A DNA stretch of 64,000 nucleotides from Loktanella sp. GTDB taxonomy: Bacteria; Pseudomonadota; Alphaproteobacteria; Rhodobacterales; Rhodobacteraceae. Below, piece by piece: positions 4,181-21,042 of the stretch (position 1 is its first letter; the number at the start of each line of letters is the position of its first letter). The translations under genes and the position numbers were made by a program. Where the stretch lies: NCBI GenBank assembly GCA_024635625.1, contig JAGXIQ010000112.1, positions 74,121 through 138,120 on the forward strand, written 5' to 3'. The notes below the pieces were generated by a model. It was not told the origin of the DNA. It saw only the letters and a program-made list of their open reading frames with translations, and searched no databases.

Positions 4181-4687
4181 TTATCGGTAAATAAAGATGG
4201 GTGTTCCGTCTTTGACCATGGCGTACATTTCTTCAATCTCTTCGTTAGTCACCGCGATGCAGCCCCACGTCCAATCCCTTTGGCCGACATATCTGTGCGG
4301 CGTTCCGTGGATGAAGATGTCGCCGCCAGGACGCTTTCCCATTGCCTCGGCGCGCGCAATATCATCGCTGTTTGGATAGGAAATACCTAGCGAAAGATGG
4401 TAGCGGCTTTTAGCATTGCGCCGATCGATGCGATAGGCGCCCTCTGGCGTGCGTCCGTCCTGTTCCACCTGCTTGTGGCCCGTAGGAGCAAATCCCATTT
4501 CCATTCGATACTGCTTCAACAGGTTGTTACCCGACAACAGCTGTACGACCCGCTGTTTTTTGAAAACTTGAACCCGTGTCACCTGCGGGCCATCGTAGCG
4601 CCGAAATTTGCTGGGCACGGCCTTGCCGCAGGCCATCAAAAGCGCGCCAGAGGCCGCCATCATCATATTACGTCTGCTCAAAAACAT
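4181..4687 (-). CDS. L,D-transpeptidase (YkuD family) lipoprotein
   Basis: SRRN...LLMAC signal; GDGRTPEG-like QDGRTPEG, LSLGISYPN, IFIHG...TWGCIAV catalytic His/Cys. Confidence 0.92.
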   Translation of the reverse strand: MFLSRRNMMMAASGALLMACGKAVPSKFRRYDGPQVTRVQVFKKQRVVQLLSGNNLLKQYRMEMGFAPTGHKQVEQDGRTPEGAYRIDRRNAKSRYHLSLGISYPNSDDIARAEAMGKRPGGDIFIHGTPHRYVGQRDWTWGCIAVTNEEIEEMYAMVKDGTPIFIYR

Positions 4688-4790
4688 GGCTGCCCCAACA
4701 GTTCTTCATCGTGTCGGTCTGACGCCGACCTCATGATTTTTCGATACACCAGCATGCGCAAAGGTCAAAGCGCTGCATGCCGCCTTGGAA

Positions 4791-5993
4791 TCACGCCCGC
4801 GTGAGCGAAGCGACCATTTCGACATGGGGCGACCAACGAAACTGATCCACGACTTGAACCCAGTCAACAGCAAAGCCCGCCTCGACCAACGTGGCCACAT
4901 CCCGACCAAATGTCACCGGGTTGCACGACACCATCGCGATCCGATTAACAGTCGAAGCCGCAAGTGTAGCCACCTGAGACGCAGCACCTGCCCGAGGCGG
5001 GTCCAACACGGCGACGTCAAAACCCTTTAGCTCGTCAGGTTCAAGCGGACGGCGGAACAAATCGCGGGTTTCCCCGGTCACGCGCTTGACGCCCTTGGCC
5101 ACGCGCCACGCCTTGTCCAGTGCCGCGATCATCGCCGCGTCGCCTTCAACTGCCAATACTTCTGCGGTCTTAGCCAACGGTAGGCTGAAGGTGCCGCAGC
5201 CCGCAAACAGGTCAACGACCTTAGCCGCATTGCCGACGATTTCCGTAACCGCAGCCAAAAGCGCCGCTTCACCGTCTGCTGTCGCTTGCAGAAATGCCCC
5301 CGGCGGTGGCGTCACAGTTGCGGAACCAAGGACTTGGACGGGCGGGCGCAGCGTTACCACGGTTTCATCCACCCACGTGAGCCGCGCCAATTGGTGTTGC
5401 TGTGCAAAGACGGCCAGATCGATGCGTAACTGGTCGGTCAGCTTTTGGTCTGTCTGCACCAGCACATCCAGCCCAGCAGCCGAATCTGTCACAGTCAACG
5501 CAACCTCGCCGCGGCGAGAGGCCGCGATGACCGTCAATGCCTCTAGCATCGGTACGCCAGCAAGCATGCCGGGTGTTACCAATTGGCAATCGGGCACTGC
5601 GACCAACACGTCAGACGCGCGTGCATGGAAACCAACCATCGCGCCCGACTTCGTCCGACGGCCCGAAAATTTCGCCCTTCTCCGTGAATGTGACGGAGAG
5701 GTGTGCATCACGCGGAATTTCGGCTCTAATCCATGTGCATGCAGGGCGCGTTCCACGACCTGCTGTTTCCATCCAGCGACAAAATCGTCGGCAGCATGCT
5801 GCAGCGCACACCCACCACAGGTTTTGAAGTGCCGGCAAGGTGGCGACACGCGCTGGATAGATGGCGTCAGGATTTGCGCCGTTCCGTCAGCGCGCAGGGC
5901 GATCTCTTCCCCCGGCAAAGTGCGCGGCACTAGCGTACCGTCGCTGGCACGCCCAGCGCCCAGATGGGTCAGGCTCTCGATAATCAGGCTCAC
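4791..5993 (-). CDS. rlmD: RNA (uracil-5)-methyltransferase, RlmD/TrmA family
   Basis: CRHFKTCGGC Fe-S motif, FLQAT, DLFAGCGTF, LDPPRAG, VSCNPVTF, DQFRWSPHVE. Confidence 0.85.
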   Translation of the reverse strand: MSLIIESLTHLGAGRASDGTLVPRTLPGEEIALRADGTAQILTPSIQRVSPPCRHFKTCGGCALQHAADDFVAGWKQQVVERALHAHGLEPKFRVMHTSPSHSRRRAKFSGRRTKSGAMVGFHARASDVLVAVPDCQLVTPGMLAGVPMLEALTVIAASRRGEVALTVTDSAAGLDVLVQTDQKLTDQLRIDLAVFAQQHQLARLTWVDETVVTLRPPVQVLGSATVTPPPGAFLQATADGEAALLAAVTEIVGNAAKVVDLFAGCGTFSLPLAKTAEVLAVEGDAAMIAALDKAWRVAKGVKRVTGETRDLFRRPLEPDELKGFDVAVLDPPRAGAASQVATLAASTVNRIAMVSCNPVTFGRDVATLVEAGFAVDWVQVVDQFRWSPHVEMVASLTRA

Positions 5994-7819
5994 GCGGCGT
6001 CCTCTACGCTGATGAAGCCCCCCGATTGCCTGTTCCAGTAGCGCGCGTAAAGCCCTTCCTGCGCCAATAGGTCGTCGTGAGTGCCCTGTTCAACGATCCG
6101 ACCGCGATCTAGTACGATGATCCGGTCCATTTGGCGCAACGTCGACAGGCGGTGTGCGATGGCAATAACCGTCTTGCCCTCCATCACCGCATCCAATGCG
6201 TCTTGGATGTTCGCTTCAACCTCGGAGTCTAATGCGCTCGTGGCCTCGTCCAAAACGAGGATCGGCGCGTTCTTCAAAATCGCCCGAGCTATCGCGATAC
6301 GCTGTCGCTGACCACCGGACAGTTTCACGCCACGCTCGCCTAGATGCGCATCGTAGCCCTTGCGCCCTGCATGATCGCGAATATTCGCGATGAACTCTTG
6401 CGCCTCGGCGCGTGCGGCCGCCTCGTGAATTTGAGCCTCTGTCGCGTCGGGTGCACCATAGCGAATATTGTCCCGCGCAGAGCGGTTGAACATGGCGGTT
6501 TCCTGCGTAACCATACCTATTTTGCGCCGCAGGCTTTCCTGACAGACGTGCCGTAGATCCTGCCCGTCGATGGAAACAACACCTTTTTCTGGATCATAGA
6601 GCCGCAACAGCAAAGCCACGAGCGTTGATTTCCCCGCCCCGGACCCGCCAACGATCCCCAGCTTTTCGCCGCTGGCAATGTCCAAGGTCACATCACGCAA
6701 GCCACCCTCGCCGCCGCCATAAGTAAATGTCACTTGATCCAGCAAAATGCGTCCGGCGCTTAGGTCCAGATCGCCCGCATCGTCGGCATCGGGCAAGGCG
6801 TGCGGTTTGGATAGGGTGCGAATGGCATCCTCGACTTCGCCCACGTTGGAATACATCCCCATCAGCGTAAAGCTGACCCAGCCGGTCATCTGTGCCAGAC
6901 GCAGACCAATGGTGCCTGCAACGGCGATATCGCCAGCGGTTGCAGCACCCCGTTGCCACAGGAACAGTGTGATCCCAACCAGCAATACGGGCAGTACACC
7001 GGCCAGCGTCATCAACCAGAAACGGAAACCCGCCGACACCCAACCAAACCCCAGCGAGTCCAACCGAAACTTTTCCATGGCGTCGGTCGCTGCCCGGTCT
7101 TCGTGGTCGGCATGTGCAAAGAGCTTAACGGTCTTGATATTGGTGATCGTATCCACGACCTGCCCCGTCACCATTGCACGAGACCCTGCGCGCTGCTTCG
7201 ACGTTTCACGGATTCGCGGCATGAAGGCACGGATCAAACCGATGTACGCCAGCATCCAGAGCGCCAGCACGACTGCCGACCAGACATCTATATCTGTCAG
7301 AAGGACGATCGAACCGATCACCGAGGCCAGCGCATAGAACACTGTGTTGATCGTATCGACACCCAGATCCGTCGTCGCCCGCGCCGCCTGCATTTGTTTC
7401 TGGCTAATGCGACCGGCAAAATCGTTATCAAAGAACGTAACCGCCTGCCCAAGCGTATGGCGATGCAGCCGCGACAGCACGAGGTTGTAAACCGCCGGTG
7501 CCACAACGACCGATTGCATCATCCCAGACAAGCCCAGCACCAAGGGTCGGAAAATGACAAAGAATAACGCTACGCTTATTAACAACCATGCGTTTTCACC
7601 GAAATAGGCACTGGGTTGACTGGCTAGGGCTGAATCGATGACTCGCCCTAGGATCAACGCTGCCAGCACCTCTAACACGCCTGCGACGGTGCTGATTAGC
7701 GCCCCCGCCCCCATCGCGCCAAAGCTGCCTCGCAACGCCCAGCGCAGGAATGCCATTAGCGTATCGGGTGGCGGCCCAGCGGCACGAGCGAAAGGGTTAA
7801 TCCAGTCTGCCGGTTTCAT
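5990..7819 (-). CDS. ABC transporter, fused permease/ATPase (type IV exporter)
   Basis: TMD plus GGSGAGKS, LSGGQRQR, LVLDEATSALD, IAHRLST. Confidence 0.95.
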   Translation of the reverse strand: MKPADWINPFARAAGPPPDTLMAFLRWALRGSFGAMGAGALISTVAGVLEVLAALILGRVIDSALASQPSAYFGENAWLLISVALFFVIFRPLVLGLSGMMQSVVVAPAVYNLVLSRLHRHTLGQAVTFFDNDFAGRISQKQMQAARATTDLGVDTINTVFYALASVIGSIVLLTDIDVWSAVVLALWMLAYIGLIRAFMPRIRETSKQRAGSRAMVTGQVVDTITNIKTVKLFAHADHEDRAATDAMEKFRLDSLGFGWVSAGFRFWLMTLAGVLPVLLVGITLFLWQRGAATAGDIAVAGTIGLRLAQMTGWVSFTLMGMYSNVGEVEDAIRTLSKPHALPDADDAGDLDLSAGRILLDQVTFTYGGGEGGLRDVTLDIASGEKLGIVGGSGAGKSTLVALLLRLYDPEKGVVSIDGQDLRHVCQESLRRKIGMVTQETAMFNRSARDNIRYGAPDATEAQIHEAAARAEAQEFIANIRDHAGRKGYDAHLGERGVKLSGGQRQRIAIARAILKNAPILVLDEATSALDSEVEANIQDALDAVMEGKTVIAIAHRLSTLRQMDRIIVLDRGRIVEQGTHDDLLAQEGLYARYWNRQSGGFISVEDAA

Positions 7820-9648
7820 GCGTCGTTCCCTATAAATCCGCCCGATTGCCGCGCCCAGAACCGCGCATAGCGGCCTTCTCGCGCTATAAGTTCTGCATGT
7901 GACCCATCCTCGACGATGCGTCCGTCCGCCATCACAATGATCCGGTCCATCCGTGCGATAGTCGACAACCGGTGTGCAATTGCGATCACAGTCTTGCCGT
8001 CCATCATCGTCTCAAGCGTATCTTGAATCGCTGCCTCAACCTCAGAGTCGAGCGCGGACGTCGCCTCGTCCAGTAGCAAAATAGGTGCGTCCTTCAGGAT
8101 CACGCGTGCCAATGCAATCCGTTGCCGTTGCCCACCCGACAGCTTCACCCCGCGCTCTCCGACCCGCGCATCGTATCCCTTATGGCCTTCCGTATCTTCA
8201 AGCGTCGTTATGAAATCATGCGCTTCGGCTTTTTCCGCCGCAGCAATCATCGCAGCCTCGGTCGCGTTAGGCGCACCATAAAGAATGTTTTCACGCACCG
8301 ATCGATGCAGCAACGCAGAGTCCTGCTGCACCATCCCGATAGCATGCCGCAGGCTATCCTGTGTTACCCCGGCGATATCCTGCCCGTCGATGCGAATGGC
8401 CCCGCCCTCTGCATCGTAAAACCGCAAGAGAAGCTTGATCAGTGTCGATTTCCCTGCGCCAGAGGCCCCAACCAGGCCCACTTTCTGCCCCGCAGGAACC
8501 GTTAGGTTGATCTGGTCCAGGCCGCCCTGCGCCTTGCCGTAATGATGAGACAGCATGTTGATCTCGATCCGGCCCGCTGTAACGGCCAGTGGCTTGGCCC
8601 CCCGATCGTCGGTCAGGGTGACGGGCTGGCCTATCGTCTCGAGCCCTTCGGCCACGACGCCAAGTTCCTGAAACAACTGACTGACGGCCCACATGATCCA
8701 ACCGCTCATACCATTCAATCGCAGCACCAGCGCAGCCGCCGCTGCAACGACACCCACGGACGCCAACCCGCCCAACCATAAGGACAGCGCCCAGCCAACG
8801 ACGCCGACAACTAACACTCCGTTCAGAAAAACCAGTGCCAGATCCATGATCGTATAAAGGCGCATTTCGCGCATCAGGGTCGTGCGGGACCCTTCGATAG
8901 CATCCTTCGCGTAGGTCAATTCGGCGTCATGGTGGGCGAACATCTTGACCGAGTGGATATTCGTATATCCATCGACGATCCGCCCAGTCACAACGCTTCG
9001 CGCATCAGAAGATGCCTGCGACGCGGGTTTGATCCGCCTTATGACCCAACGCAGCAAGAACAAGTATGGGATGAACCACGCCAACAGGGGCAACACCAAT
9101 CGCAGGTCAGCATCCGCCAGCAACAGGAATGCGCCGATCAGATAGGCAGCAGCGAACGCGACTGCCTCGAAAAACTGATTCATCACGCTGGCAACGGCGT
9201 TCGGCGTCTGCATGACGCGGTTGGCGATCCGTCCAGCAAAGTCATTTTCGAACCAACCGACGGACTGGCGCATGATCTGTCGGTGCGCCCGCCATCGGGC
9301 CAAGGCCGTCACATTGGGGTTGATCGTCTGGTTTAACAATGCCGTGTGCGCCGTTTGGATCATTGGCCGCAATGTCAGAAAGAACACAGCCATCGCAATC
9401 AACTCGCCCGCATGATCGGCCCAAAAGACGGCAGGGTCCTTGTCTAGCAAGTCGACCAAACGGCCAAGGTAGCCAATCAATCCCACCTCTATAAAGGCGA
9501 CGATTGTCGAAAGTGCCGCCGTAATCACAAAGACACTGTGGAACGGTCGAGTGTAGTCCCACAAAAACGGCCAAAGCCGCGTGGGCGGTGTGTCGGTCTC
9601 CTCATACGGCGTATAGGGATCGACAAGGCGCTCAAAAAAACCAAACAC
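7816..9648 (-). CDS. ABC transporter, fused permease/ATPase; paralog of the downstream gene
   Basis: GASGAGKS, LSGGQRQR, LLLDEATSALD; ATGA overlap with the next gene. Confidence 0.95.
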   Translation of the reverse strand: MFGFFERLVDPYTPYEETDTPPTRLWPFLWDYTRPFHSVFVITAALSTIVAFIEVGLIGYLGRLVDLLDKDPAVFWADHAGELIAMAVFFLTLRPMIQTAHTALLNQTINPNVTALARWRAHRQIMRQSVGWFENDFAGRIANRVMQTPNAVASVMNQFFEAVAFAAAYLIGAFLLLADADLRLVLPLLAWFIPYLFLLRWVIRRIKPASQASSDARSVVTGRIVDGYTNIHSVKMFAHHDAELTYAKDAIEGSRTTLMREMRLYTIMDLALVFLNGVLVVGVVGWALSLWLGGLASVGVVAAAAALVLRLNGMSGWIMWAVSQLFQELGVVAEGLETIGQPVTLTDDRGAKPLAVTAGRIEINMLSHHYGKAQGGLDQINLTVPAGQKVGLVGASGAGKSTLIKLLLRFYDAEGGAIRIDGQDIAGVTQDSLRHAIGMVQQDSALLHRSVRENILYGAPNATEAAMIAAAEKAEAHDFITTLEDTEGHKGYDARVGERGVKLSGGQRQRIALARVILKDAPILLLDEATSALDSEVEAAIQDTLETMMDGKTVIAIAHRLSTIARMDRIIVMADGRIVEDGSHAELIAREGRYARFWARQSGGFIGNDA

Positions 9649-9705
9649 GTCAGTGCCTCTGTCTGAATAATTCAGATGTAGGCCTCTGGTTGAAGAAGGG
9701 AAACC

Positions 9706-10842
9706 CTAAGGCAGCAGATCGTCGCGGGTCAGCGTAAAACCGGATGCAATCCAGCTGGCCTCTGCCGCTTTAAGTGCAGCACCCAAGGCAGGGCCCTGCA
9801 ACGCAGGCATGAAATCGGCGGCCTTGACGGGCAAGCTTTGCCCAGCACCAAGTTGCGCCGCCGCAATCTGGGTTTTGTCCATCGGCTGCGATAGGGAAGC
9901 AGAGAGAACTGCAAGACGGTCAATGGCCGTGTTGGCACCATGACGGTATCCCACCTCTCCAGCGTTTTGGTCCGTTTCGCGCAGAATCGCCCAGCGCGCA
10001 GCCTCTGCCTTAGATAACCGAAGGCGATCAGGATCCCCGCCTAGGGCAGCCAGCCTGCGCATGAAATCAGGCTCTAACTTCGCCATTTCCTCGATATGGA
10101 TCAAGATCGTCAGCACGTCTGGCGCAGCGCCCGGCAACACCCGCAACAAGGCCCCGCTGGCGGCCATGCTTGCGATTGCGGGCGCTGGATCAGGTGCGGC
10201 CAATAGCTTGCGTATCTCATTGCCAATGCGTTCGGCCGACAGCCCGTCGATCCCGTCAAGGTTGGCGGCACATGCGGCGAGGCCATCGGCATCGATGCCA
10301 AGGGCTGGATCACCGTACCAAGCAAAGAAGCGAAAGAACCGCAGGATACGCAAGTAGTCCTCACGAATACGCTGTGCTGCCCCTCCGATAAATCGAACGT
10401 GACCCGCTAAGGCGTCGGGGATGCCACCCAAAGGATCGTGCAACGTGCCATCAGGCGCGGCGTAAATCGCGTTCATCGTGAAATCGCGCCGCCGCGCGTC
10501 TTCATCTGGCGTATTAGCAAAGGCAACGGTGGCGTGCCGCCCGTCCGTATCGATGTCACGGCGAAATGTCGTGATCTCGAATTGGGTGCCATCCACGATC
10601 ACTGTAACCGTGCCGTGGTCGATACCCGTTGGCACGACGCGAAAATCCGCCTTTTGGCCAAGCGCGCATACGACATCTGGCGTTGCATCCGTTGTGATAT
10701 CCAAATCGCTGGCGGCGGCACCTATCAGGGCGTTACGCACGCACCCCCCTACAAACCATGCCTGATGGCCCGCATTGGTCAGCATTGCGCAGACTCTCTG
10801 GGCGGCAGGATCGTCCAACCATTCGGGCGCGATCCGCGTCAC
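9706..10842 (-). CDS. cca: CCA tRNA nucleotidyltransferase / poly(A) polymerase family
   Basis: FVGGCVRN, DLDITTDA, GIDHGTVTV, DARRRDFTMNA, EDYLRILRFFRF. Start placed at GTG 10842 (GTGA overlap with the upstream stop) rather than 10947. Confidence 0.9.
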   Translation of the reverse strand: MTRIAPEWLDDPAAQRVCAMLTNAGHQAWFVGGCVRNALIGAAASDLDITTDATPDVVCALGQKADFRVVPTGIDHGTVTVIVDGTQFEITTFRRDIDTDGRHATVAFANTPDEDARRRDFTMNAIYAAPDGTLHDPLGGIPDALAGHVRFIGGAAQRIREDYLRILRFFRFFAWYGDPALGIDADGLAACAANLDGIDGLSAERIGNEIRKLLAAPDPAPAIASMAASGALLRVLPGAAPDVLTILIHIEEMAKLEPDFMRRLAALGGDPDRLRLSKAEAARWAILRETDQNAGEVGYRHGANTAIDRLAVLSASLSQPMDKTQIAAAQLGAGQSLPVKAADFMPALQGPALGAALKAAEASWIASGFTLTRDDLLP

Positions 10843-11435
10843 GGTTGCATCCGGTCTGCCAAGGCCCGCAGTATGCGGCCGGTTGCGCCCCAGATGTAGT
10901 AGGGGCCGAAAGGGACTGTATAATAATGCCGCATGTGGCCCTGCCACCGTCGCGATTGGATTATAAAATTGTTCGGGTTCGTGACGTGGGCCAATGGCAC
11001 CTCGAATACCTCTGTCACCTCGCCGATTTCAGCACGGGGAATGAAGTCGCCCCGGATCAGCCCTATGACCGGCGTCATGGAAAAACCGGTCACCGTTTCA
11101 TGTTCTGGCATTTGGCCCAGCACGTCGACACTGGAGCGGAGCAAGCCGACTTCTTCTTCTGCCTCGCGCAGCGCCGCAGCTGCCAAAGTAGGGTCGCCTA
11201 AATCCTGTTTACCACCAGGAAAGGCAATCTGGCCGGGGTGATGTTTTAGCGCGGCAGATCGCTTTGTCAGAAAAACAGTCTCTGTTTCCGGGCGAATAGC
11301 AATCAGAACGGCCGCAGGTCGCAGGATACGATCTACGGGGGCAAAAACGTCGTTGTTCAGATCGTAGTCGGTCGAGGGCCGGCCCGATCGGGCCAGCGCC
11401 TTTAGCAGTCTTGCGTCGAGATTAAGAATCGCCAT
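10839..11435 (-). CDS. Nudix hydrolase, CoA pyrophosphatase type
   Basis: AAVLI, LTKRS..LKHHPGQIAFPGGK, ALREAEEEVG, YYIWGATG; start moved to ATG 11435. Confidence 0.92.
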   Translation of the reverse strand: MAILNLDARLLKALARSGRPSTDYDLNNDVFAPVDRILRPAAVLIAIRPETETVFLTKRSAALKHHPGQIAFPGGKQDLGDPTLAAAALREAEEEVGLLRSSVDVLGQMPEHETVTGFSMTPVIGLIRGDFIPRAEIGEVTEVFEVPLAHVTNPNNFIIQSRRWQGHMRHYYTVPFGPYYIWGATGRILRALADRMQP

Positions 11436-12423
11436 CGGTAGCAACGGCCTCGAAACCAAGGGTTTCCGGCCTAAACTCGTAATGGGCACCGCAGAATTGA
11501 CAGTCAGCCGTCACGATGCCTTCGTCTGTCGTCATCGTTCGAATATCCTTGGCAGAATAGATCGAAAGGCTTTGCCGCACGCGATCTGCCGAACAGGTGC
11601 AGCCAAACGTGACAGGCTGCGGATCGTAGACACGCGGCTCTTCCTCGTGGAACAGTCGAACCAGCAAGTCAGTCGGCTGCACAGTCGGGCCGATTAGTTC
11701 CAGCGCGTCCACGGTATCCAACAGGATATTAGCACGACGCCAGTTTTCACCTTCGTCCTCGTCCAGAATATCCTCTGCCGCCAGCAGACCTTCTTCGCCA
11801 GACCCGCCTTCACCCGTCATAAGTGGAGAGGCCTTCGGCATGTGCTGAAGCATTACGCCGCCAGCGCGCCAGTGCTCACCCTCGCCCGCCAAGGTGCTGC
11901 GACCGTGAGTCAAAGAAAACCGGGTCGGGATCTGTTCGGACTGGGCAAAATACGTCTCGGCGCAAGAGGACAGCGAACCACCTGCGAGCGGGGTGATCCC
12001 CTGATAGGGCGTCGTGCCCTCACCTTGATCGATCAGAATCGCAAAATATCCCTTACCGATCTGCGTGAATGCGTCGCCGTTTGGGTCCAGCGTATCTTTG
12101 TCGTAGGCCGCATATGCACGAATCTTGGCTGGTTCGCCATCATCAGTCGGACCGTAGTAGTCGGTCGCAAGCAGACGAACAGGACCACCTGACCCGCGCA
12201 CTTGCAGGGACAGTTTCCAACGCAATTTCATCGTCTGACCAATCAACGCGGTCAGCAGGCACATTTCCGCGAGGAGCCCTTCGATTTGGGCGGGATAGTC
12301 GTGCTGACGCAGCACGTCCTCCAACACACCATCAAGACGGGCGACGCGGCCCCGGATATCAGAGGCGTCAAGCTGGAACGGCAGGACTGTGTCGTCCCAG
12401 GCGATACGAGAGCCAAGGGTCAT
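11422..12423 (-). CDS. hslO: Hsp33 redox-regulated chaperone
   Basis: DIRGRVARL, C-terminal zinc motifs CTCS and CQFC. Confidence 0.95.
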   Translation of the reverse strand: MTLGSRIAWDDTVLPFQLDASDIRGRVARLDGVLEDVLRQHDYPAQIEGLLAEMCLLTALIGQTMKLRWKLSLQVRGSGGPVRLLATDYYGPTDDGEPAKIRAYAAYDKDTLDPNGDAFTQIGKGYFAILIDQGEGTTPYQGITPLAGGSLSSCAETYFAQSEQIPTRFSLTHGRSTLAGEGEHWRAGGVMLQHMPKASPLMTGEGGSGEEGLLAAEDILDEDEGENWRRANILLDTVDALELIGPTVQPTDLLVRLFHEEEPRVYDPQPVTFGCTCSADRVRQSLSIYSAKDIRTMTTDEGIVTADCQFCGAHYEFRPETLGFEAVATDGDS

Positions 12424-12462
12424 GGGCTTTCCTTACAAGGTCGGATTTGGCATACCGCGACA

Positions 12463-12943: not shown

Positions 12944-13069
12944 CGTTGGTCTTGCGCATGTAGGGGCCTGCGTCATTCAGGCATCCACCATAATTCATCA
13001 AGTCGTAAGGCGTCGCGCGTAGCTTTAGGACTTCGGCATTCGCCCAATTTGCGGCGACTGCCGCGGCAT

Positions 13070-14038
13070 ATGAAATTTGAAAACAATATTGGACAATCCA
13101 TTTTGGATACCCCAAATCGCGCCGACCTTGCTGGCCCTCCTCCGCAGGTCATAGTGGAATTACTGCGCTTGCTAGGTACAGCAGATGTTCTGGTTGGCGT
13201 GTACGATCCGAATGACACGCTGTGTTACGGCAACGCCGCATTTCGAAACGCCTATGGCGTTGCCCACGATACCTCGCCCACGTGGGAACAAATTATGCGC
13301 CACAATTTCGCGGCGGGTTTGGGGGCGGCACTTGATACCAAAGATCTGGATAACTGGATCGCATCGGCCCTCTCGCGCCGAGGTAAGGCAGCGGCCCGGC
13401 AGTTCGAAAGCGACCTGATAGACGGTAGGTAGTTGATGATAAACGAAACAATGCTGGAAAGCGGGTGGAGCCTGTTTATTGCGAGCGATGTCACAGCCCT
13501 GCGCGCATCAGAACGCGGCTTACGGCCGGCGCGGGATATTGCCCTTAAATCTGCACAGACCGGCCCCTTAACCGGGGTTTCGAACCGGCGGCAGGTGATG
13601 AATCAGATGGAGCTCGTTATTTCACAGGGTGAAACTGTTTCAGCCTGCGCCTGTTTGCTGAATATAGACCACTTCAAAAGTGTGAACGACCAATTCGGGC
13701 ATCAAGTAGGCGACACGGTCTTGACCAGTTTTGCTCGCACCATCCAACGATCAATCAGGGTTCGCGACAGCTTTGGAAGGGTTGGTGGTGAAGAATTCCT
13801 ACTGATCCTTACGGACCTTACCGCCGACATGGCCGCGCCCCGTATCGCAAGCATATTAAACGCTGTGCGCATTATCACGCTACCCGGCATGCCGCCCGAC
13901 TTTCGCGTGACATGTTCTGGCGGCCTGACGCAAATCAGGCCAGTCGACACCTTGGCAGAAGTATTTGGCCGCTGCGACGCAGCGCTCTATTCGGCAAAGC
14001 ATAGCGGGCGTGATCAGATCGTAGCAGATCAGGGTTAG
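13070..14038 (+). pseudogene. PAS-GGDEF diguanylate cyclase interrupted by an in-frame TAG at 13430-13432
   Basis: ORFs 13049..13432 and 13433..14038 share a frame (GAC GGT AGG TAG TTG ATG). The N-terminal part is PAS-like; the C-terminal part has SNRR, HFKSVNDQFGH, RVRD I-site and GGEEF. Confidence 0.85.
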
Positions 14039-15514: not shown

Positions 15515-16222
15515 TCAGATTATTTTCAGCGCATGTTTTGAAAGTCGTTCGTAGTGCGGCAAAGCCCGATCAACGAGGGCGGCTGCGGAACCGCTGAGAA
15601 CCGGCAAGGGCCCTTCGGAATGAGCAAAACCATTACTTGCGTGCACGGCACCATACCAATGCGCCGCCCACACCCCGTCCGCCGGATGCCCGCCAACAGG
15701 CCATGACAACATCGCCGGATCGAAAGGCAGCCCGATTACATCACAAAGCATTGCCAGCAGGCCCGCAGGGTTAGCGCGGATATCGGCGCTGTCGATTACG
15801 AAGCCACCGATATTGTCGAACAAAGCCGCCTGCGCCGCAAAGCCGATATCCGCGTCAGTTACCGTGTCCCGCTTTGCCCCATAACTCGCGACAACGCGCG
15901 CAGGGTGCCGAATCAGATGAACATTCACGCAGTCCTGCGCCCAATCGAGCGGAAAGCCATCAATCATATGGTGTGGCATGTGTTTCATGTAAAAATGCGG
16001 TTTCGCATCGGGGATAGGTCCAGCGCAACGGGCGGCGATTTTAGACGCGTCAACTTCATGCGCTGCGATGATAGCCTCGTGCATCGGATGATCTATGCCG
16101 GTCGCAGCAAGATAGGCCGCGTAGAACGGCTCGTCCCAAACCGCGCAATCTCCGCGTGCCCCAAAGCTATACATCATAGCTGTCGAAAGGTTGCGGGGCC
16201 CTGACCACATGGCAATCCTCAT
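15515..16222 (-). CDS. Sulfotransferase-fold (P-loop-like) protein of unknown function
   Basis: [14 protein letters not shown] resembles the 5'-PSB loop; LIRHPARVVASY resembles the 3'-PB motif. ATG 16222 overlaps the upstream TGA (ATGA); the ORF-track extension to 16486 is spurious. Confidence 0.75.
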   Translation of the reverse strand: MRIAMWSGPRNLSTAMMYSFGARGDCAVWDEPFYAAYLAATGIDHPMHEAIIAAHEVDASKIAARCAGPIPDAKPHFYMKHMPHHMIDGFPLDWAQDCVNVHLIRHPARVVASYGAKRDTVTDADIGFAAQAALFDNIGGFVIDSADIRANPAGLLAMLCDVIGLPFDPAMLSWPVGGHPADGVWAAHWYGAVHASNGFAHSEGPLPVLSGSAAALVDRALPHYERLSKHALKII

Positions 16223-17136
16223 GGGCGCGTCTCGATCAGCGCCTTGTAAAGGTCGCGTAAGCGTTGCGTGACGGGGCCAAGTTGGCCGGTGCCGATTTGG
16301 CGACCATCGATAGACCCGACAGGTGTTTGCGCACCAAATGTACCGGTCAGGAATGCCTCGTCCGCGCCGTAGGTATCGACGAGCGAGAAGTTGCGTTGGT
16401 GGACGGGAATATCGTTCGCGTGGCACAGGTCGATGACCTTTTGACGGGTGATACCGTTCATGCAGTAATCGCCAGTGCTGGTCCACACAGTACCCTTGCG
16501 CACGATAAAGAAATTGCAGGCGTTCGTCGTGTTCACGAAACCATGAACGTCCAACATCAATGCCTCGTCTGCGCCGGCCTTTTGCGCGGCAATACAGGCA
16601 AGGATGCAGTTCAGTTTCGAATGCGAATTCAGCTTGGGGTCTTGTGTCATCGGCAAACCGCGCAGGTGGGGCACGGTTGCGAGTGTAATCGGCCGCGGTA
16701 TAGACGGTTTTGAGTGTTCCATGATGATGACCATGGTCGGCCCGGATTGCGACAGCGACGGATGCTGAAATGGGCGAACCTTGACCCCGCGCGTCACCAT
16801 CAAGCGCGCGTGCGCGTCGGTAGCCATCCCATTCGCCGCTTGCGTTTCGCGCAGCGCGGCGATTACGCCAGCGCGGTCTAGGCCGATATCGAGATCGATG
16901 GCTTTTGCCGCCTCGAATAGACGATCCATGTGATCATCAAGGAACGCCCAGTGTCCGTCGTAAAGACGCAAACCCTCCCATACACCATCACCCAACAAAA
17001 AGCCGCTGTCATAAACACTGACCACAGCCTCTGATTTAGGTCGCAAGACACCGTCAATATAGATCAGGATTTGATCGTTCCGAGCGTCTTCGGCAGCCTG
17101 ATGGGTCGTCACATCGTTGGAATAGGGGGCAGTCAT
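16219..17136 (-). CDS. Fold-type IV PLP-dependent enzyme (BCAT/DAAT/PabC family)
   Basis: [33 protein letters not shown] (candidate PLP Lys), [27 protein letters not shown]. Confidence 0.9.
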
Positions 17137-17250: not shown

Positions 17251-17913
17251 ATGTTCACGACATTCCAAATACTGAAACGGACGGCACTGACATTGGCCAC
17301 AGGCGCAGTGATTATACTGACCCCGCAAGTGGCGGCGGCGCAACAACAGCAGGCGATCGTGGCGGGCGGCTGTTTCTGGTGCGTTGAATCGGACTTTGAA
17401 AGCGTGCCGGGCGTTGGGGACGTAATTTCCGGCTACACGGGCGGCACTGTCGCCAATCCGACGTACTCTCAGGTCGGTCGCGGTGGCACCGGCCATTTCG
17501 AAGCGGTGATGATCCCCTTTGATGCTTCCAAGGTAACATATCGCCACATCATGGATCTGTTCTTTCGCAGCGTCGATCCAACCGACGCAGGCGGGCAATT
17601 CTGCGACCGTGGCGACCAGTATCGCACAGCAGTTTTTGTGACAACGCAGGAACAGGCGGATATCGCGTCAGCAGCCAAGGTATCGGCGCAGAAGGACTTA
17701 GGGCGCCAAATCGTGACACCCATCGTTCAGGCCGGGACCTTTTATCGCGCCGAAGACTACCATCAGGACTACTACAAGGGTGACAAGTTGATCCTAACCC
17801 GTGGCGGCCCGAAACGGCAAAGCGAAGCCTATGATTTCTATCGTAAAGGCTGCGGCCGCGATGCACGTATCCAACAGCTTTGGGGTACCAACGCGCCGTT
17901 CATCCACCACTAG
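17251..17913 (+). CDS. msrA: Peptide-methionine (S)-S-oxide reductase with an N-terminal signal peptide
   Basis: [40 protein letters not shown]; RBS GGGAGG before ATG 17251. Confidence 0.95.
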
Positions 17914-18785
17914 GCGCGGTCAGGCCTGAAGTCTTCAAGATCCCTTAGGTCAGGAATGACATCGGCGGTGCCGGGCCGCGTGACCATCAGTGCCGCAGCT
18001 CTAATGGCAAGGTTGATCGCCTGCGCCATCGGGTGCCCCCGATCGAGACCAGCAAGGACGTAGCCGGTAAATGTGTCACCCGCACCGGTCGTATCGACCG
18101 GTGTCACCGGCATTGCATCAAAATGGCGGTGGCCGTCTGGCCCGAACCAGTCGGCGCCATTTTTGCCCAATGTCACGATCACGTCGCGGATGCCCAGCGT
18201 TTCGGGTCGCTGGCCGATGGCTTGCTGCAATTGATCCGCTTCGACCTGATTCAGGATCAGTAAATCGATATGCGGCAAGACTGCCTTGACCCGGTCCGCA
18301 TCGAATGGCGCAGCAGCATAGGCAACCTTCAGTCCCATCTTTTTGCCCAGTGTGGCAGCGGTGCGTTGCAAGTTCGTTTCGTTTTGTATCAGCAACCAGT
18401 CGCCCGTTTCGGCCTCTGTCATCGCCTCTTGGAGGATCGCTTGCGGGATTGCGTCATTTGCACCCGGAAACAGAATGATCATATTCTCGCCTTGGGGGTC
18501 GACAGCGATGATGGCCTGCGCGGTATCTTCGTCTACTCGCGCAATAAAGCGAGTATCGACGCCGTATTCCATCAAGCGATCAACAGCCCATTCGCCGTCA
18601 TCACCGACGGCACCGATGTGGTGAACGATCGCCGCGGCACGGGCGGCGGCAACCGACATGTTCGTGCCCTTGCCGCCAAGAAACACCTCTCTTTGTGTCG
18701 ATGACAGTGTTTCGCCGGCGACAGGAATGTGCGGGACGGCATAAACGAAGTCGGCGTTGATAGAGCCAAGGTTCCAGATTGCCAT
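17910..18785 (-). CDS. rbsK: Ribokinase / PfkB sugar kinase
   Basis: GSINAD, GGKGTN, GAVGDDG, LQNET-like [14 protein letters not shown]; ATG 18785. Confidence 0.85.
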
Positions 18786-18786
18786 A

Positions 18787-21042
18787 TTAACCAACCTTAC
18801 AGGCGGCAAATACCGCCATATTCAAAATGTCATTCACAGTGCTAACGGTCGAACAGATCTGGATCGGCTTGTCGATGCCCGATAGAATCGGCCCGATGAT
18901 CGTCGCCCCTGCCATTTCCTGCATCAACTTTACCGATATGCTGGCAGAATGCCGCGCAGGCACCACCAGAACATTGGCCGGCCCTGTCAGACGGCTGAAC
19001 GGGTAATGCGCCTGTGCTGCAGGATTCAAAGCTACGTCGACGGTCATCTCTCCTTCATATTCGAAATCGACACCACGCGCGTCAAGGACCGTCGGTGCAA
19101 TGTGCATTTTCTCGGCACGTTCAGACACCGGATAGCCAAAAGTGGAAAACGACAGGAAGGCTACGCGCGGCTCAAGGCCAAGATCGCGGGCGACGGCCGC
19201 GCCACGCTCTGCGATATCGGCAAGGTCGTTCTGGTCGGGCCATTCGTGCACCAGTGTATCGGCGATCAATACAATACGGCCACGGTTCAAAACAGCAGTG
19301 ACACCGACAGCACCGTCGTGTGGGCCTGCGTCAAAGACATGGTTAATCAATTCAAGCACATGGGCAGATTTACGGGTCGCACCGGTAACCATCCCATCGG
19401 CGTGACCATGCGCCAGCATAAGGGCGGCGAATACGTGACGATCGCGGGCGGCAAGGCGGTGGACGTCCTGCCGGTCATGCCCCTTGCGCTGCAGGCGTTC
19501 GTACAGAAAGGTCTTATAAGTCTCTAAGTGGGGCGTATTGGCTGCGTTGACGACTTCCAATTCCTCTATCGCGTCGCCCAGACCTTCTGCATTTAACATA
19601 ACCTCGACGTCCTTAGTCCGCCCAATGACGATGGCTTTTCCCAGCCCTTGGCGCTGATAGGCGATTGCGGCACGCAGGACGCGTGGATCGTCACCTTCGG
19701 TGAAAATCACGCTTGATTGTGCCTGTCGCGCTCGGGCGTTCAGACCGCGCAGAATGTTCGCCGTTGGATCCATCCGGGATTTGAGGGAAGCCTCGTATGC
19801 CTCCATGTCGATGATCGGACGGCGGGCGACACCGGTGGCCATGCCGGCCTTCGCGACCGCTGGCGGGATACGGTGGATCAGGCGGGGATCAAAAGGCGTG
19901 GGAATAATGTAATCGCGGCCGAAGGTCAGTTTGGTCCCGTAGGCGACCGCGACCTCTTCGGGTACATCCTCGCGCGCCAACTGAGCAAGAGCATGGGCGC
20001 AAGCAATCTTCATCTCGTCATTGATCGCGCGGGCGTGGATATCCAGTGCGCCGCGAAACAGATAGGGAAAGCCTAGGACGTTGTTTACTTGGTTCGGATA
20101 GTCGCTTCGCCCTGTTGCGACTATCGCATCGGCCCGGACGGCGCGGGCCTCTTCTGGCGTAATCTCTGGGTCCGGGTTTGCCATGGCAAAGATCACCGGA
20201 TTAGGGGCCATATCTGACACCATTTCGGGGGTAACAGCCCCTTTTGCGCTGACACCAAGGAACACGTCAGCCCCCTTCATCGCATCCGCAAGGGTGCGAG
20301 CGGGCGTGTTAGCCGCGTGCGCGGACTTCCACTGGTTCATACCTTCGGTGCGGCCCTGATAAATCACGCCCTTCGTATCGCACATGATGCAATTGTCGTG
20401 TTTCGCGCCCATGGACTTCAATAATTCTAGACACGCGATACCCGCCGCTCCTGCGCCGTTCAGCACGATCCGCACATCCTCGATCTTCTTGCCGCTAATG
20501 TGCAAAGCGTTCAACAAACCGGCGGCGCAGATAACCGCGGTGCCGTGCTGGTCATCGTGAAAGACGGGAATATCCATCTCTTCCTTCAGACGCTGCTCGA
20601 TGATGAAGCACTCGGGCGCCTTGATATCTTCTAGGTTGATGCCGCCGAATGTTGGCCCCATCAGGCGGACGGCATTGCAAAATGCATCAGGGTCTTCGGT
20701 GTCCAACTCAATATCGATGGAGTTGATGTCGGCGAAGCGCTTAAAAAGGACTGACTTACCTTCCATCACCGGCTTAGAGGCCAACGCGCCGAGGTTGCCA
20801 AGACCAAGCACCGCGGTGCCGTTGCTAATGACGGCAACGAGGTTGCCCTTGTTTGTATAGTCATAGGCCGTTGCTGGATCGGCGTAAATTTCCTCACAGG
20901 GGATCGCGACGCCTGGGGAATATGCGAGGCTAAGGTCACGCTGGGTCGTCATGGGGACGGTTGCCTGTACCTCCCACTTGCCTGGTGTCGGGGCGATATG
21001 GAACGCCAAGGCATCCTCTCTTGTCAGTTTAGCCTTGGTCAT
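18787..21042 (-). CDS. maeB: NADP-dependent malic enzyme with C-terminal phosphotransacetylase-like domain
   Basis: LSLAYSPGVA, SNGTAVLGLG, KPVMEGK, FHDDQHGTA, GRSDYPNQVNN, DFEYEGEM. Confidence 0.97.
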   Translation of the reverse strand: MTKAKLTREDALAFHIAPTPGKWEVQATVPMTTQRDLSLAYSPGVAIPCEEIYADPATAYDYTNKGNLVAVISNGTAVLGLGNLGALASKPVMEGKSVLFKRFADINSIDIELDTEDPDAFCNAVRLMGPTFGGINLEDIKAPECFIIEQRLKEEMDIPVFHDDQHGTAVICAAGLLNALHISGKKIEDVRIVLNGAGAAGIACLELLKSMGAKHDNCIMCDTKGVIYQGRTEGMNQWKSAHAANTPARTLADAMKGADVFLGVSAKGAVTPEMVSDMAPNPVIFAMANPDPEITPEEARAVRADAIVATGRSDYPNQVNNVLGFPYLFRGALDIHARAINDEMKIACAHALAQLAREDVPEEVAVAYGTKLTFGRDYIIPTPFDPRLIHRIPPAVAKAGMATGVARRPIIDMEAYEASLKSRMDPTANILRGLNARARQAQSSVIFTEGDDPRVLRAAIAYQRQGLGKAIVIGRTKDVEVMLNAEGLGDAIEELEVVNAANTPHLETYKTFLYERLQRKGHDRQDVHRLAARDRHVFAALMLAHGHADGMVTGATRKSAHVLELINHVFDAGPHDGAVGVTAVLNRGRIVLIADTLVHEWPDQNDLADIAERGAAVARDLGLEPRVAFLSFSTFGYPVSERAEKMHIAPTVLDARGVDFEYEGEMTVDVALNPAAQAHYPFSRLTGPANVLVVPARHSASISVKLMQEMAGATIIGPILSGIDKPIQICSTVSTVNDILNMAVFAACKVG

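Follow-up and report, generated by a model that had tools for sequence, protein, structure and literature searches.

Coupled genes for a probable sulfotransferase and a lysine-less fold-type-IV protein in Loktanella

The gene pair and its conservation

We analysed a 64,000-nucleotide stretch of the genome of a Loktanella sp. (the window; contig JAGXIQ010000112.1), which carries two overlapping genes on its minus strand, here called gene A and gene S. Gene A (17136..16219) encodes a 305-amino-acid fold-type-IV "aminotransferase-like" protein, placed in a lysine-less, Asn-type clade by its match to Pfam family PF01063 and its best Protein Data Bank (PDB) match, 7z79. Gene S (16222..15515) lies on the 3' side of gene A and encodes a 235-amino-acid member of Sulfotransfer_5 (PF19798), a probable sulfotransferase dependent on 3'-phosphoadenosine 5'-phosphosulfate (PAPS) as judged from Pfam, an AlphaFold2 model and Foldseek.

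The stop codon of gene A and the start codon of gene S share the letters ATGA at 16219..16222 (minus strand), an arrangement of translational coupling. The junction reads ...ACG CGC CCA TGA in the gene A frame and ATG AGG ATT GCC ATG TGG in the gene S frame, and reading both frames across it confirmed the overlap claimed in an earlier note made from the letters alone (the original prediction). The public database gene call for gene S begins at Met5, which gives a product of 231 amino acids, and a Shine-Dalgarno-like GAGGA is found 5 nucleotides ahead of that ATG. Met1 nevertheless appears to be the better start, because R-I-A before Trp6 is kept in diverse gene S homologues, position 5 is often Val, Leu or Ile rather than Met, and 43 of 53 adjacent pairs from other loci have an ATG at the site that corresponds to Met1. 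A scan for a promoter and terminator at the locus gave nothing informative. A 323-amino-acid open reading frame starting from GTG 16486, present in a mechanical list of such frames, was discarded as a mere out-of-frame extension into gene A. The closest homologues come from Loktanella and Yoonia, in agreement with the roseobacter host that had been proposed.

To describe the arrangement of the genes, we used 80 related loci from species genomes, mostly of Rhodobacterales, plus Alteromonas and Hyphomonadaceae. Gene A is located immediately upstream of gene S on the same strand in 53 of these, and the two overlap at 31 of the 53 adjacent junctions (18 by 4 nucleotides, 13 by 1). A further seven loci have gene A within 2 kb or in another arrangement, including two intact Alteromonas loci with divergent genes and one locus with S before A, and 19 have no gene A within 6 kb of gene S. 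In genera where gene A is gone from the site, gene S keeps its syntenic position and a gene A of about 70% identity is found elsewhere.

The two genes also occur in the same genomes. An even sample of 301 Pseudomonadota genomes, with gene A counted at E <= 1e-60, contained gene S in 27, gene A in 26 and both in 25; two of the remaining genomes had only weak S-like matches, one had gene A alone, and 273 had neither. The genes are adjacent in 18 of the 25 genomes with both. Gene S was also looked for in 14 model-organism control genomes, and none had it. Within the family to which the window belongs, the module is present in 16 of 18 sampled genomes, the window's own included. Its distribution extends to other alphaproteobacteria, Alteromonas and actinobacteria, and it is fused in green algae and land plants.

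Three distant contigs also have the pair, adjacent or nearly so. One lies outside the phylum, from the actinobacterium Ornithinimicrobium, and has gene A followed by gene S with a 4-nucleotide overlap. In the two others gene S comes first, followed by gene A in one and by an AAA_33 protein and then gene A in the other. The Ornithinimicrobium pair (L100 4066-9809) has a SulP-family sulfate transporter and a PfkB kinase nearby. On the contig with the intervening gene (L104 5001-7698), the AAA_33 gene is P-loop kinase-like and sits between gene S and a gene A of the His type described below.

The same two domains are also found in one polypeptide. A concatenated A+S query gave only close gene A homologues, and scoring was restricted to the S part instead. 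Among 64 proteins of at least 297 amino acids with an S domain, 23 also have PF01063, and every other partner was seen once or twice. Clean fusions in the order S-linker-A are a 644-amino-acid protein of the green alga Micractinium conductrix (P0436) and a 592-amino-acid eukaryote-like protein; fusions in land plants have been reported (PMC13725701; bioRxiv 10.64898/2026.09.05.748609). Most metagenomic "fusions" of 530-556 amino acids, P0400, P0404, P0407 and P0434 among them, were rejected as frameshift or gene-calling artefacts because they contain the long Arg/Pro/His-rich stretches typical of out-of-frame high-GC translation. Large open frames in two genomes (G218 and G043) were likewise not fusions, being two genes in different frames.

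Linkage of gene A and gene S is thus far beyond chance. The original prediction had described a coupled unit whose two domains are fused in plants, and had proposed a gene-neighbourhood and fusion survey as a check; the survey found the pair conserved together, with 25 genomes having both genes against 3 with one, and fused in eukaryotes.

Sulfotransferase features of gene S

Gene S matches PF19798 with an E value of 3.8e-100 (334.4 bits against a cut-off of 23.2), residues 1-228 aligning with profile positions 1-223 of 226, and an NCBIfam search matched no model. A sequence search of the PDB returned weak matches only, to olefin-synthase and CurM sulfotransferase (ST) domains. The AlphaFold2 model, made with 49 diverse homologues, has a predicted local distance difference test score (pLDDT) of 97 and a predicted template modelling score (pTM) of 0.92. 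Foldseek matches to this model are all sulfotransferases down to rank 26 (E 5e-7 to 5e-4, template modelling [TM] scores 0.36-0.55), among them CurM ST, olefin-synthase ST, tyrosylprotein sulfotransferases (TPST), retinol dehydratase, Stf0 and LGS1.

Both PAPS-binding-like motifs quoted in the original prediction are present. The first, SGPRNLST (residues 7-14; 16181..16204, minus strand), resembles a 5'-phosphosulfate-binding loop following strand 1; in the model it is placed between strand 2-7 and helix 13-21, with Arg where a PKxGTT-like loop has Lys. Across the 49 homologues, this P-R-N-x-S-T loop has P9, R10 and S13 at least 90% conserved and T14 invariant. The second, LIRHPARVVASY (residues 103-114), includes RHPARVVAS (residues 105-113; 15884..15910, minus strand), a putative 3'-phosphate-binding motif (Arg-x7-Ser) that aligns with RHPYAVIES of the olefin-synthase sulfotransferase 4gox. 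Conservation is at least 90% at R105 and S113 here, and complete at P107. D30, E31, P32 and K80 are invariant as well. D30-E31 of this DEP motif (16130..16135, minus strand) is a candidate catalytic base, by analogy with sulfotransferases that use a Glu base, and K80 is a further candidate. A Walker-A motif, GxxxxGK[ST], was looked for in gene S and is absent.

The family match, model, Foldseek results and conservation of both motifs bear out the claim of a sulfotransferase fold and indicate that gene S is a distant but genuine member with PAPS-type motifs. It most likely uses PAPS, to judge from sequence and model. The genome can make PAPS, as an APS (adenosine 5'-phosphosulfate) kinase domain is encoded on another of its contigs (C113).

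The best structural matches to gene S are activating sulfotransferases: CurM ST, olefin-synthase ST (4GBM/4GOX), retinol dehydratase (1X8K/1FML) and LGS1 (22GA). In such enzymes, sulfation makes a leaving group for later elimination or cyclisation. Olefin-synthase ST shares the 3'-phosphate motif RHPxxVxxS with gene S, and identity to the group is 12-16% with TM-scores of 0.41-0.55. Gene S differs in being a small stand-alone protein and not a polyketide synthase domain, so that the second step would fall to a separate fold-type-IV protein. A 2026 survey of bacterial sulfotransferases (PMC13449962) gives a tally of Sulfotransfer_5 without studying the family. Many members of the family are named "HAD family hydrolase" in NCBI records; Pfam finds PF19798 alone in them, over the whole length.

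Active site of gene A and the surrounding genes

Gene A has the Aminotran_4 fold, matching PF01063 over profile positions 1-223 of 223 (E 3.5e-39). All 19 NCBIfam models that it matched, for branched-chain aminotransferases (BCAT), D-amino acid aminotransferases (DAAT) and 4-amino-4-deoxychorismate lyases (ADCL), score below cut-off, the best being NF006185 (226.2 bits against 363). The roles of individual residues are known for fold-type-IV enzymes, including the phosphate site, the Glu that binds N1 of pyridoxal 5'-phosphate (PLP), and the carboxylate Arg. The canonical enzymes (BCAT IlvE, DAAT and ADCL) share with gene A the fold, the Pfam family, the phosphate site and one carboxylate Arg, and differ from it at four other positions of the active site.

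First, Asn170 occupies the column of the Schiff-base lysine, in alignment with the solved archaeal BCATs 5mqz, 5cm0 and 5e25 (niKslnY) and with the Lys of a paralogue from the same genome. It lies within N170-S-H172-S-K174 of the stretch LNSHSKLN (codons 16615..16629, minus strand), which has a conserved His at +2, and was kept in 59 of 59 related loci and conserved in 76 family members. Second, Thr203 (codon 16528..16530, minus strand) stands in for the Glu by which BCAT, DAAT and ADCL bind the PLP pyridine N1, as aligned with yvsEgsgdNiF of 5mqz; it too was kept in 59 of 59 loci, and distant relatives have Ser there. Third, Lys174 replaces the O3'-contacting Tyr four residues after the Schiff-base column, where relatives have Arg. 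Fourth, in the Y-x-R carboxylate site of BCATs the Arg is retained (H109-A-R111) and the Tyr is changed to His109. The residues of the cofactor phosphate site are retained, as EGxR (R57; codon 16966..16968, minus strand), GITR (T230) and TGT (T266).

From this alignment, gene A cannot form an internal aldimine. Ordinary PLP transamination is unlikely, since gene A lacks both the Schiff-base Lys and the N1 Glu, falls below the NCBIfam cut-offs and belongs with 7Z79; the original description of a BCAT/DAAT-type PLP enzyme therefore did not hold. Canonical fold-type-IV paralogues with Lys and Glu are encoded elsewhere in the genome (contigs C20:12313-13134, which is the paralogue aligned above, and C60:11265-12098), and one of them is IlvE-like.

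Strict conservation of the replacement residues argues for a site that still works, with altered chemistry, over one that has decayed. In a comparison of 76 family members, 81 positions reach at least 97% conservation; these include R111 and the family-specific W53, H109, T115, N170, S171, H172, S173, N205, W218 and S220. W53 and H109, both at least 97% conserved, stand where canonical enzymes have Phe and Tyr. A recent preprint describes a rare conserved Trp and His near the cofactor or substrate site, W67 and H122 in 3WWH numbering (bioRxiv 10.64898/2026.09.05.748609), to which W53 and H109 may be equivalent. Across the same loci, gene A is more conserved than gene S (about 80% against about 60% identity).

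The partners of gene S fall into two lysine-less types. The Asn type, to which the proteins of the window, of the actinobacterium and of the green alga belong, combines Asn in the Lys column with Thr or Ser in the Glu column. In the His type, a sister clade that is paired with gene S as well, the Glu is retained and the Lys is replaced by His (K-I-H-H-N-N or R-I-H-S-C-N). These types match the Active-ASN and Active-HIS groups of a lysine-less fold-type-IV "cluster 8", for which a plant N-terminal PF19798 domain was noted and cofactor binding and function were stated to be unexplored (bioRxiv 10.64898/2026.09.05.748609). Cluster 8 and the plant and algal "BCAT-like" fusions share with gene A the Asn at the Lys position and, possibly, the rare Trp and His. 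They differ in order: the eukaryotic fusions carry the S domain at the N-terminus, and in the window gene A comes first and the two genes are separate and overlapping. A bacterial operon of this kind is not described in the preprint.

The closest solved relative of gene A is 7Z79, an "aminotransferase-like protein" of Variovorax paradoxus (E 2.9e-87, residues 9-302). The motif L-N-S-H-S-(K/R)-L-N, with its Asn in the Schiff-base column, is common to both, as are Ser/Thr in the Glu column and the W, H and phosphate-site residues; 7Z79 differs in having Arg in place of Lys174. Entry 9J32 is the N174K mutant of 7Z79, changed from Asn to Lys at the Schiff-base column. Our literature search found no paper on 7Z79 or 9J32, nor on the putative Arabidopsis counterparts At5g27410 and At3g05190, and the 7Z79 entry has no function attached to it. 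Another protein considered, OsDIAT (PMC13757565), was set aside as an unfused 37-kDa protein that is not relevant.

The nearest 7Z79-type relative in the genome survey, with Arg at the K174 position, comes from a genome (G283) in which Sulfotransfer_5 is absent. It stands at the end of a polar amino-acid ABC (ATP-binding cassette) transporter operon with SBP_bac_3, two permeases and an ATPase (L092, G283:C1:1096000-1115000, at about 4263-12462), and a divergent MmgE/PrpD gene, a SnoaL plus alpha/beta-hydrolase gene and a LysR regulator are also nearby. The transporter operon hints that gene A handles an amino-acid-like compound.

NCBI records call the fold-type-IV partners of gene S "D-amino acid" or "branched-chain amino acid aminotransferase", though they have no catalytic lysine. 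These names and the hydrolase name given to Sulfotransfer_5 proteins look like systematic misannotation. In the case of the fold-type-IV partner, which is unable to form the internal aldimine, the aminotransferase names are almost certainly wrong.

A third conserved neighbour of the pair was sought by clustering the 80 close and 17 distant loci. The only result was synteny within Rhodobacterales, of argG, msrA, a PfkB kinase and malic enzyme, and none of these genes is near the pair in the distant taxa. In the window, the PfkB-family sugar kinase (17910-18809, minus strand) is ribokinase-like but reaches only 210 bits where the equivalog cut-offs ask for 300, and its synteny with the pair extends to 38 of the 80 Rhodobacterales-type loci. 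Elsewhere in the window, two consecutive same-frame open reading frames (13049..13432 and 13433..14038, plus strand) look like one GGDEF-type protein split by a stop codon. The locus is a typical member of the pair, with no feature beyond those of many other instances.

Proposed function and alternatives

We consider it probable, though well short of certain, that the pair is a self-contained two-gene operon whose products act together on one small carboxylate metabolite, with gene S as a divergent PAPS-type sulfotransferase and gene A as a non-standard, lysine-less fold-type-IV protein. This reading builds on what was observed directly: the coupling, co-occurrence and fusion of the genes, the motifs of gene S, and the loss of Lys and Glu from gene A.

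We infer the cofactor, substrate class, order of steps and chemistry as follows. Gene S would O-sulfonate a hydroxyl of an amino-acid-like or keto-acid-like compound. Gene A would hold PLP or pyridoxamine 5'-phosphate (PMP) non-covalently, with a conserved His as a possible base (H172 in the Asn type, the His at the Lys position in the His type). It would bind the sulfated compound and then eliminate or replace the sulfate, or otherwise transform the compound. The route put forward in the original prediction, in which sulfation prepares a leaving group for cofactor-dependent elimination, would be compatible with these data. Two groups of enzymes make such chemistry plausible. ColD and E1, PMP-dependent sugar 3-dehydratases of fold type I, have His in place of the Schiff-base Lys and use it as the base in elimination of a beta-hydroxyl, and beta-eliminating enzymes of fold type II have Ser or Thr at N1. 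The His-type sister clade would resemble ColD and E1 in having His at the Lys position, and the Asn type has its conserved His two residues later. The likeness would be one of mechanism alone: ColD and E1 are unlike gene A in fold, in their nucleotide-sugar substrates and in having no sulfotransferase partner.

In its fullest form, the proposal is of an undescribed B6-dependent system, widespread from marine bacteria to plants, in which a dedicated sulfotransferase would install sulfate as a leaving group and a lysine-less fold-type-IV protein, with non-covalent PLP or PMP, a His base and a neutral Thr or Ser at N1, would eliminate or replace it. We offer this version tentatively and, taken whole, regard it as unlikely.

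Several observations weigh against a joint sulfotransferase pathway of this kind. The better structural matches of gene S reach TM-scores of only 0.45-0.55, which makes it a distant sulfotransferase. APS kinase was found in 27 of 27 gene-S-positive genomes, but this is weak support for PAPS use, because APS kinase is common anyway (228 of 301 genomes overall, 76%) and the genomes are not phylogenetically independent. A structure model of gene A from a shallow alignment was poor (pLDDT 57.6), so the roles of its residues rest on alignment to solved BCATs. Gene A and gene S are unlinked in 7 of the 25 genomes with both; together with the G283 copy that occurs without gene S, this suggests that gene A has some role of its own. 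A fused tomato homologue, SlBCAT7, was reported to have ordinary BCAT activity, as cited in the cluster 8 preprint (bioRxiv 10.64898/2026.09.05.748609). Finally, our literature search found no paper on a bacterial A-S operon and no experiment on the pair.

The main rival, which we regard as doubtful but possible, is that gene A is a pseudoenzyme. It would be a non-catalytic partner whose ligand might be a B6 vitamer, an amino acid or some other phospho-compound, and would act as a specificity, scaffolding or regulatory subunit of gene S, which would do all the chemistry. Loss of both the Schiff-base Lys and the N1 Glu fits this role, and fusion and tight coupling would suit a stable complex. 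The title of 7z79 and the making of its N174K mutant suggest, in addition, that the wild type has no transaminase activity. However, the replaced residues are near-invariant (N170, S171, H172, S173, N205, W53 and H109), and gene A is the more conserved of the two proteins. The His-type sister clade keeps its Glu and has a plausible catalytic His, and in at least one genome gene A is found without gene S, in a transporter operon that suggests catabolism.

It is quite improbable that gene S is some other nucleotide-dependent transferase, either a kinase or a 3'-phospho-ADP-type ligand binder, providing phosphorylation or another activation step. Sulfotransferases and nucleotide kinases have a common fold, adenylate kinases are among the weaker Foldseek matches (E about 6e-4), an AAA_33 P-loop kinase lies between S and A at one distant locus, and NCBI calls many family members hydrolases of the HAD family. 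Against this, Pfam assigns PF19798 and no HAD domain, and the Foldseek matches of higher rank are sulfotransferases throughout. We rejected a kinase as the primary reading of gene S because it lacks Walker A and has the conserved Arg-x7-Ser typical of PAPS 3'-phosphate binding.

A working BCAT/DAAT-type PLP transaminase, with gene S sulfating or phosphorylating its amino-acid substrate or product, seems to us very improbable. The PF01063 match, the BCAT and DAAT models as best NCBIfam matches, and the activity reported for SlBCAT7 speak for it. Yet those model scores are far below cut-off, the Lys for an internal aldimine and the Glu at N1 are both missing, and canonical paralogues are present elsewhere in the genome. 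For the SlBCAT7 activity, the preprint that cites it finds no mechanistic basis (bioRxiv 10.64898/2026.09.05.748609). That the two genes are unrelated neighbours held together by Rhodobacterales synteny is effectively refuted: many Rhodobacterales do keep argG, msrA, the PfkB kinase and malic enzyme around the pair, but the pair persists without them in other alphaproteobacterial families, a gammaproteobacterium and an actinobacterium, co-occurs even when unlinked, and is fused in eukaryotes.

Both families are already catalogued (PF19798; 7Z79/9J32 and cluster 8) and the eukaryotic fusion is known. We found no member with an established function in the literature, in agreement with the original prediction. 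None of the three outcomes that the original prediction named as refuting it was seen. What the pair does is a genuine question and open to experiment, but public resources already show it and other loci raise it as much as this one does. Thousands of copies carry the names "branched-chain" or "D-amino acid aminotransferase" and "HAD family hydrolase" or "sulfotransferase", and the pair has been kept together from marine bacteria to green algae and plants. Unlike the plant fusion, the bacterial operon offers an easy genetic entry point. Identification of the substrate would correct a large block of annotation and show the role of a lysine-less fold-type-IV protein, and it might reveal a sulfated metabolite common to marine bacteria and plants. 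If the reading as an undescribed B6-dependent system is true, the pair would represent a widespread pathway, extending from marine bacteria to plants.

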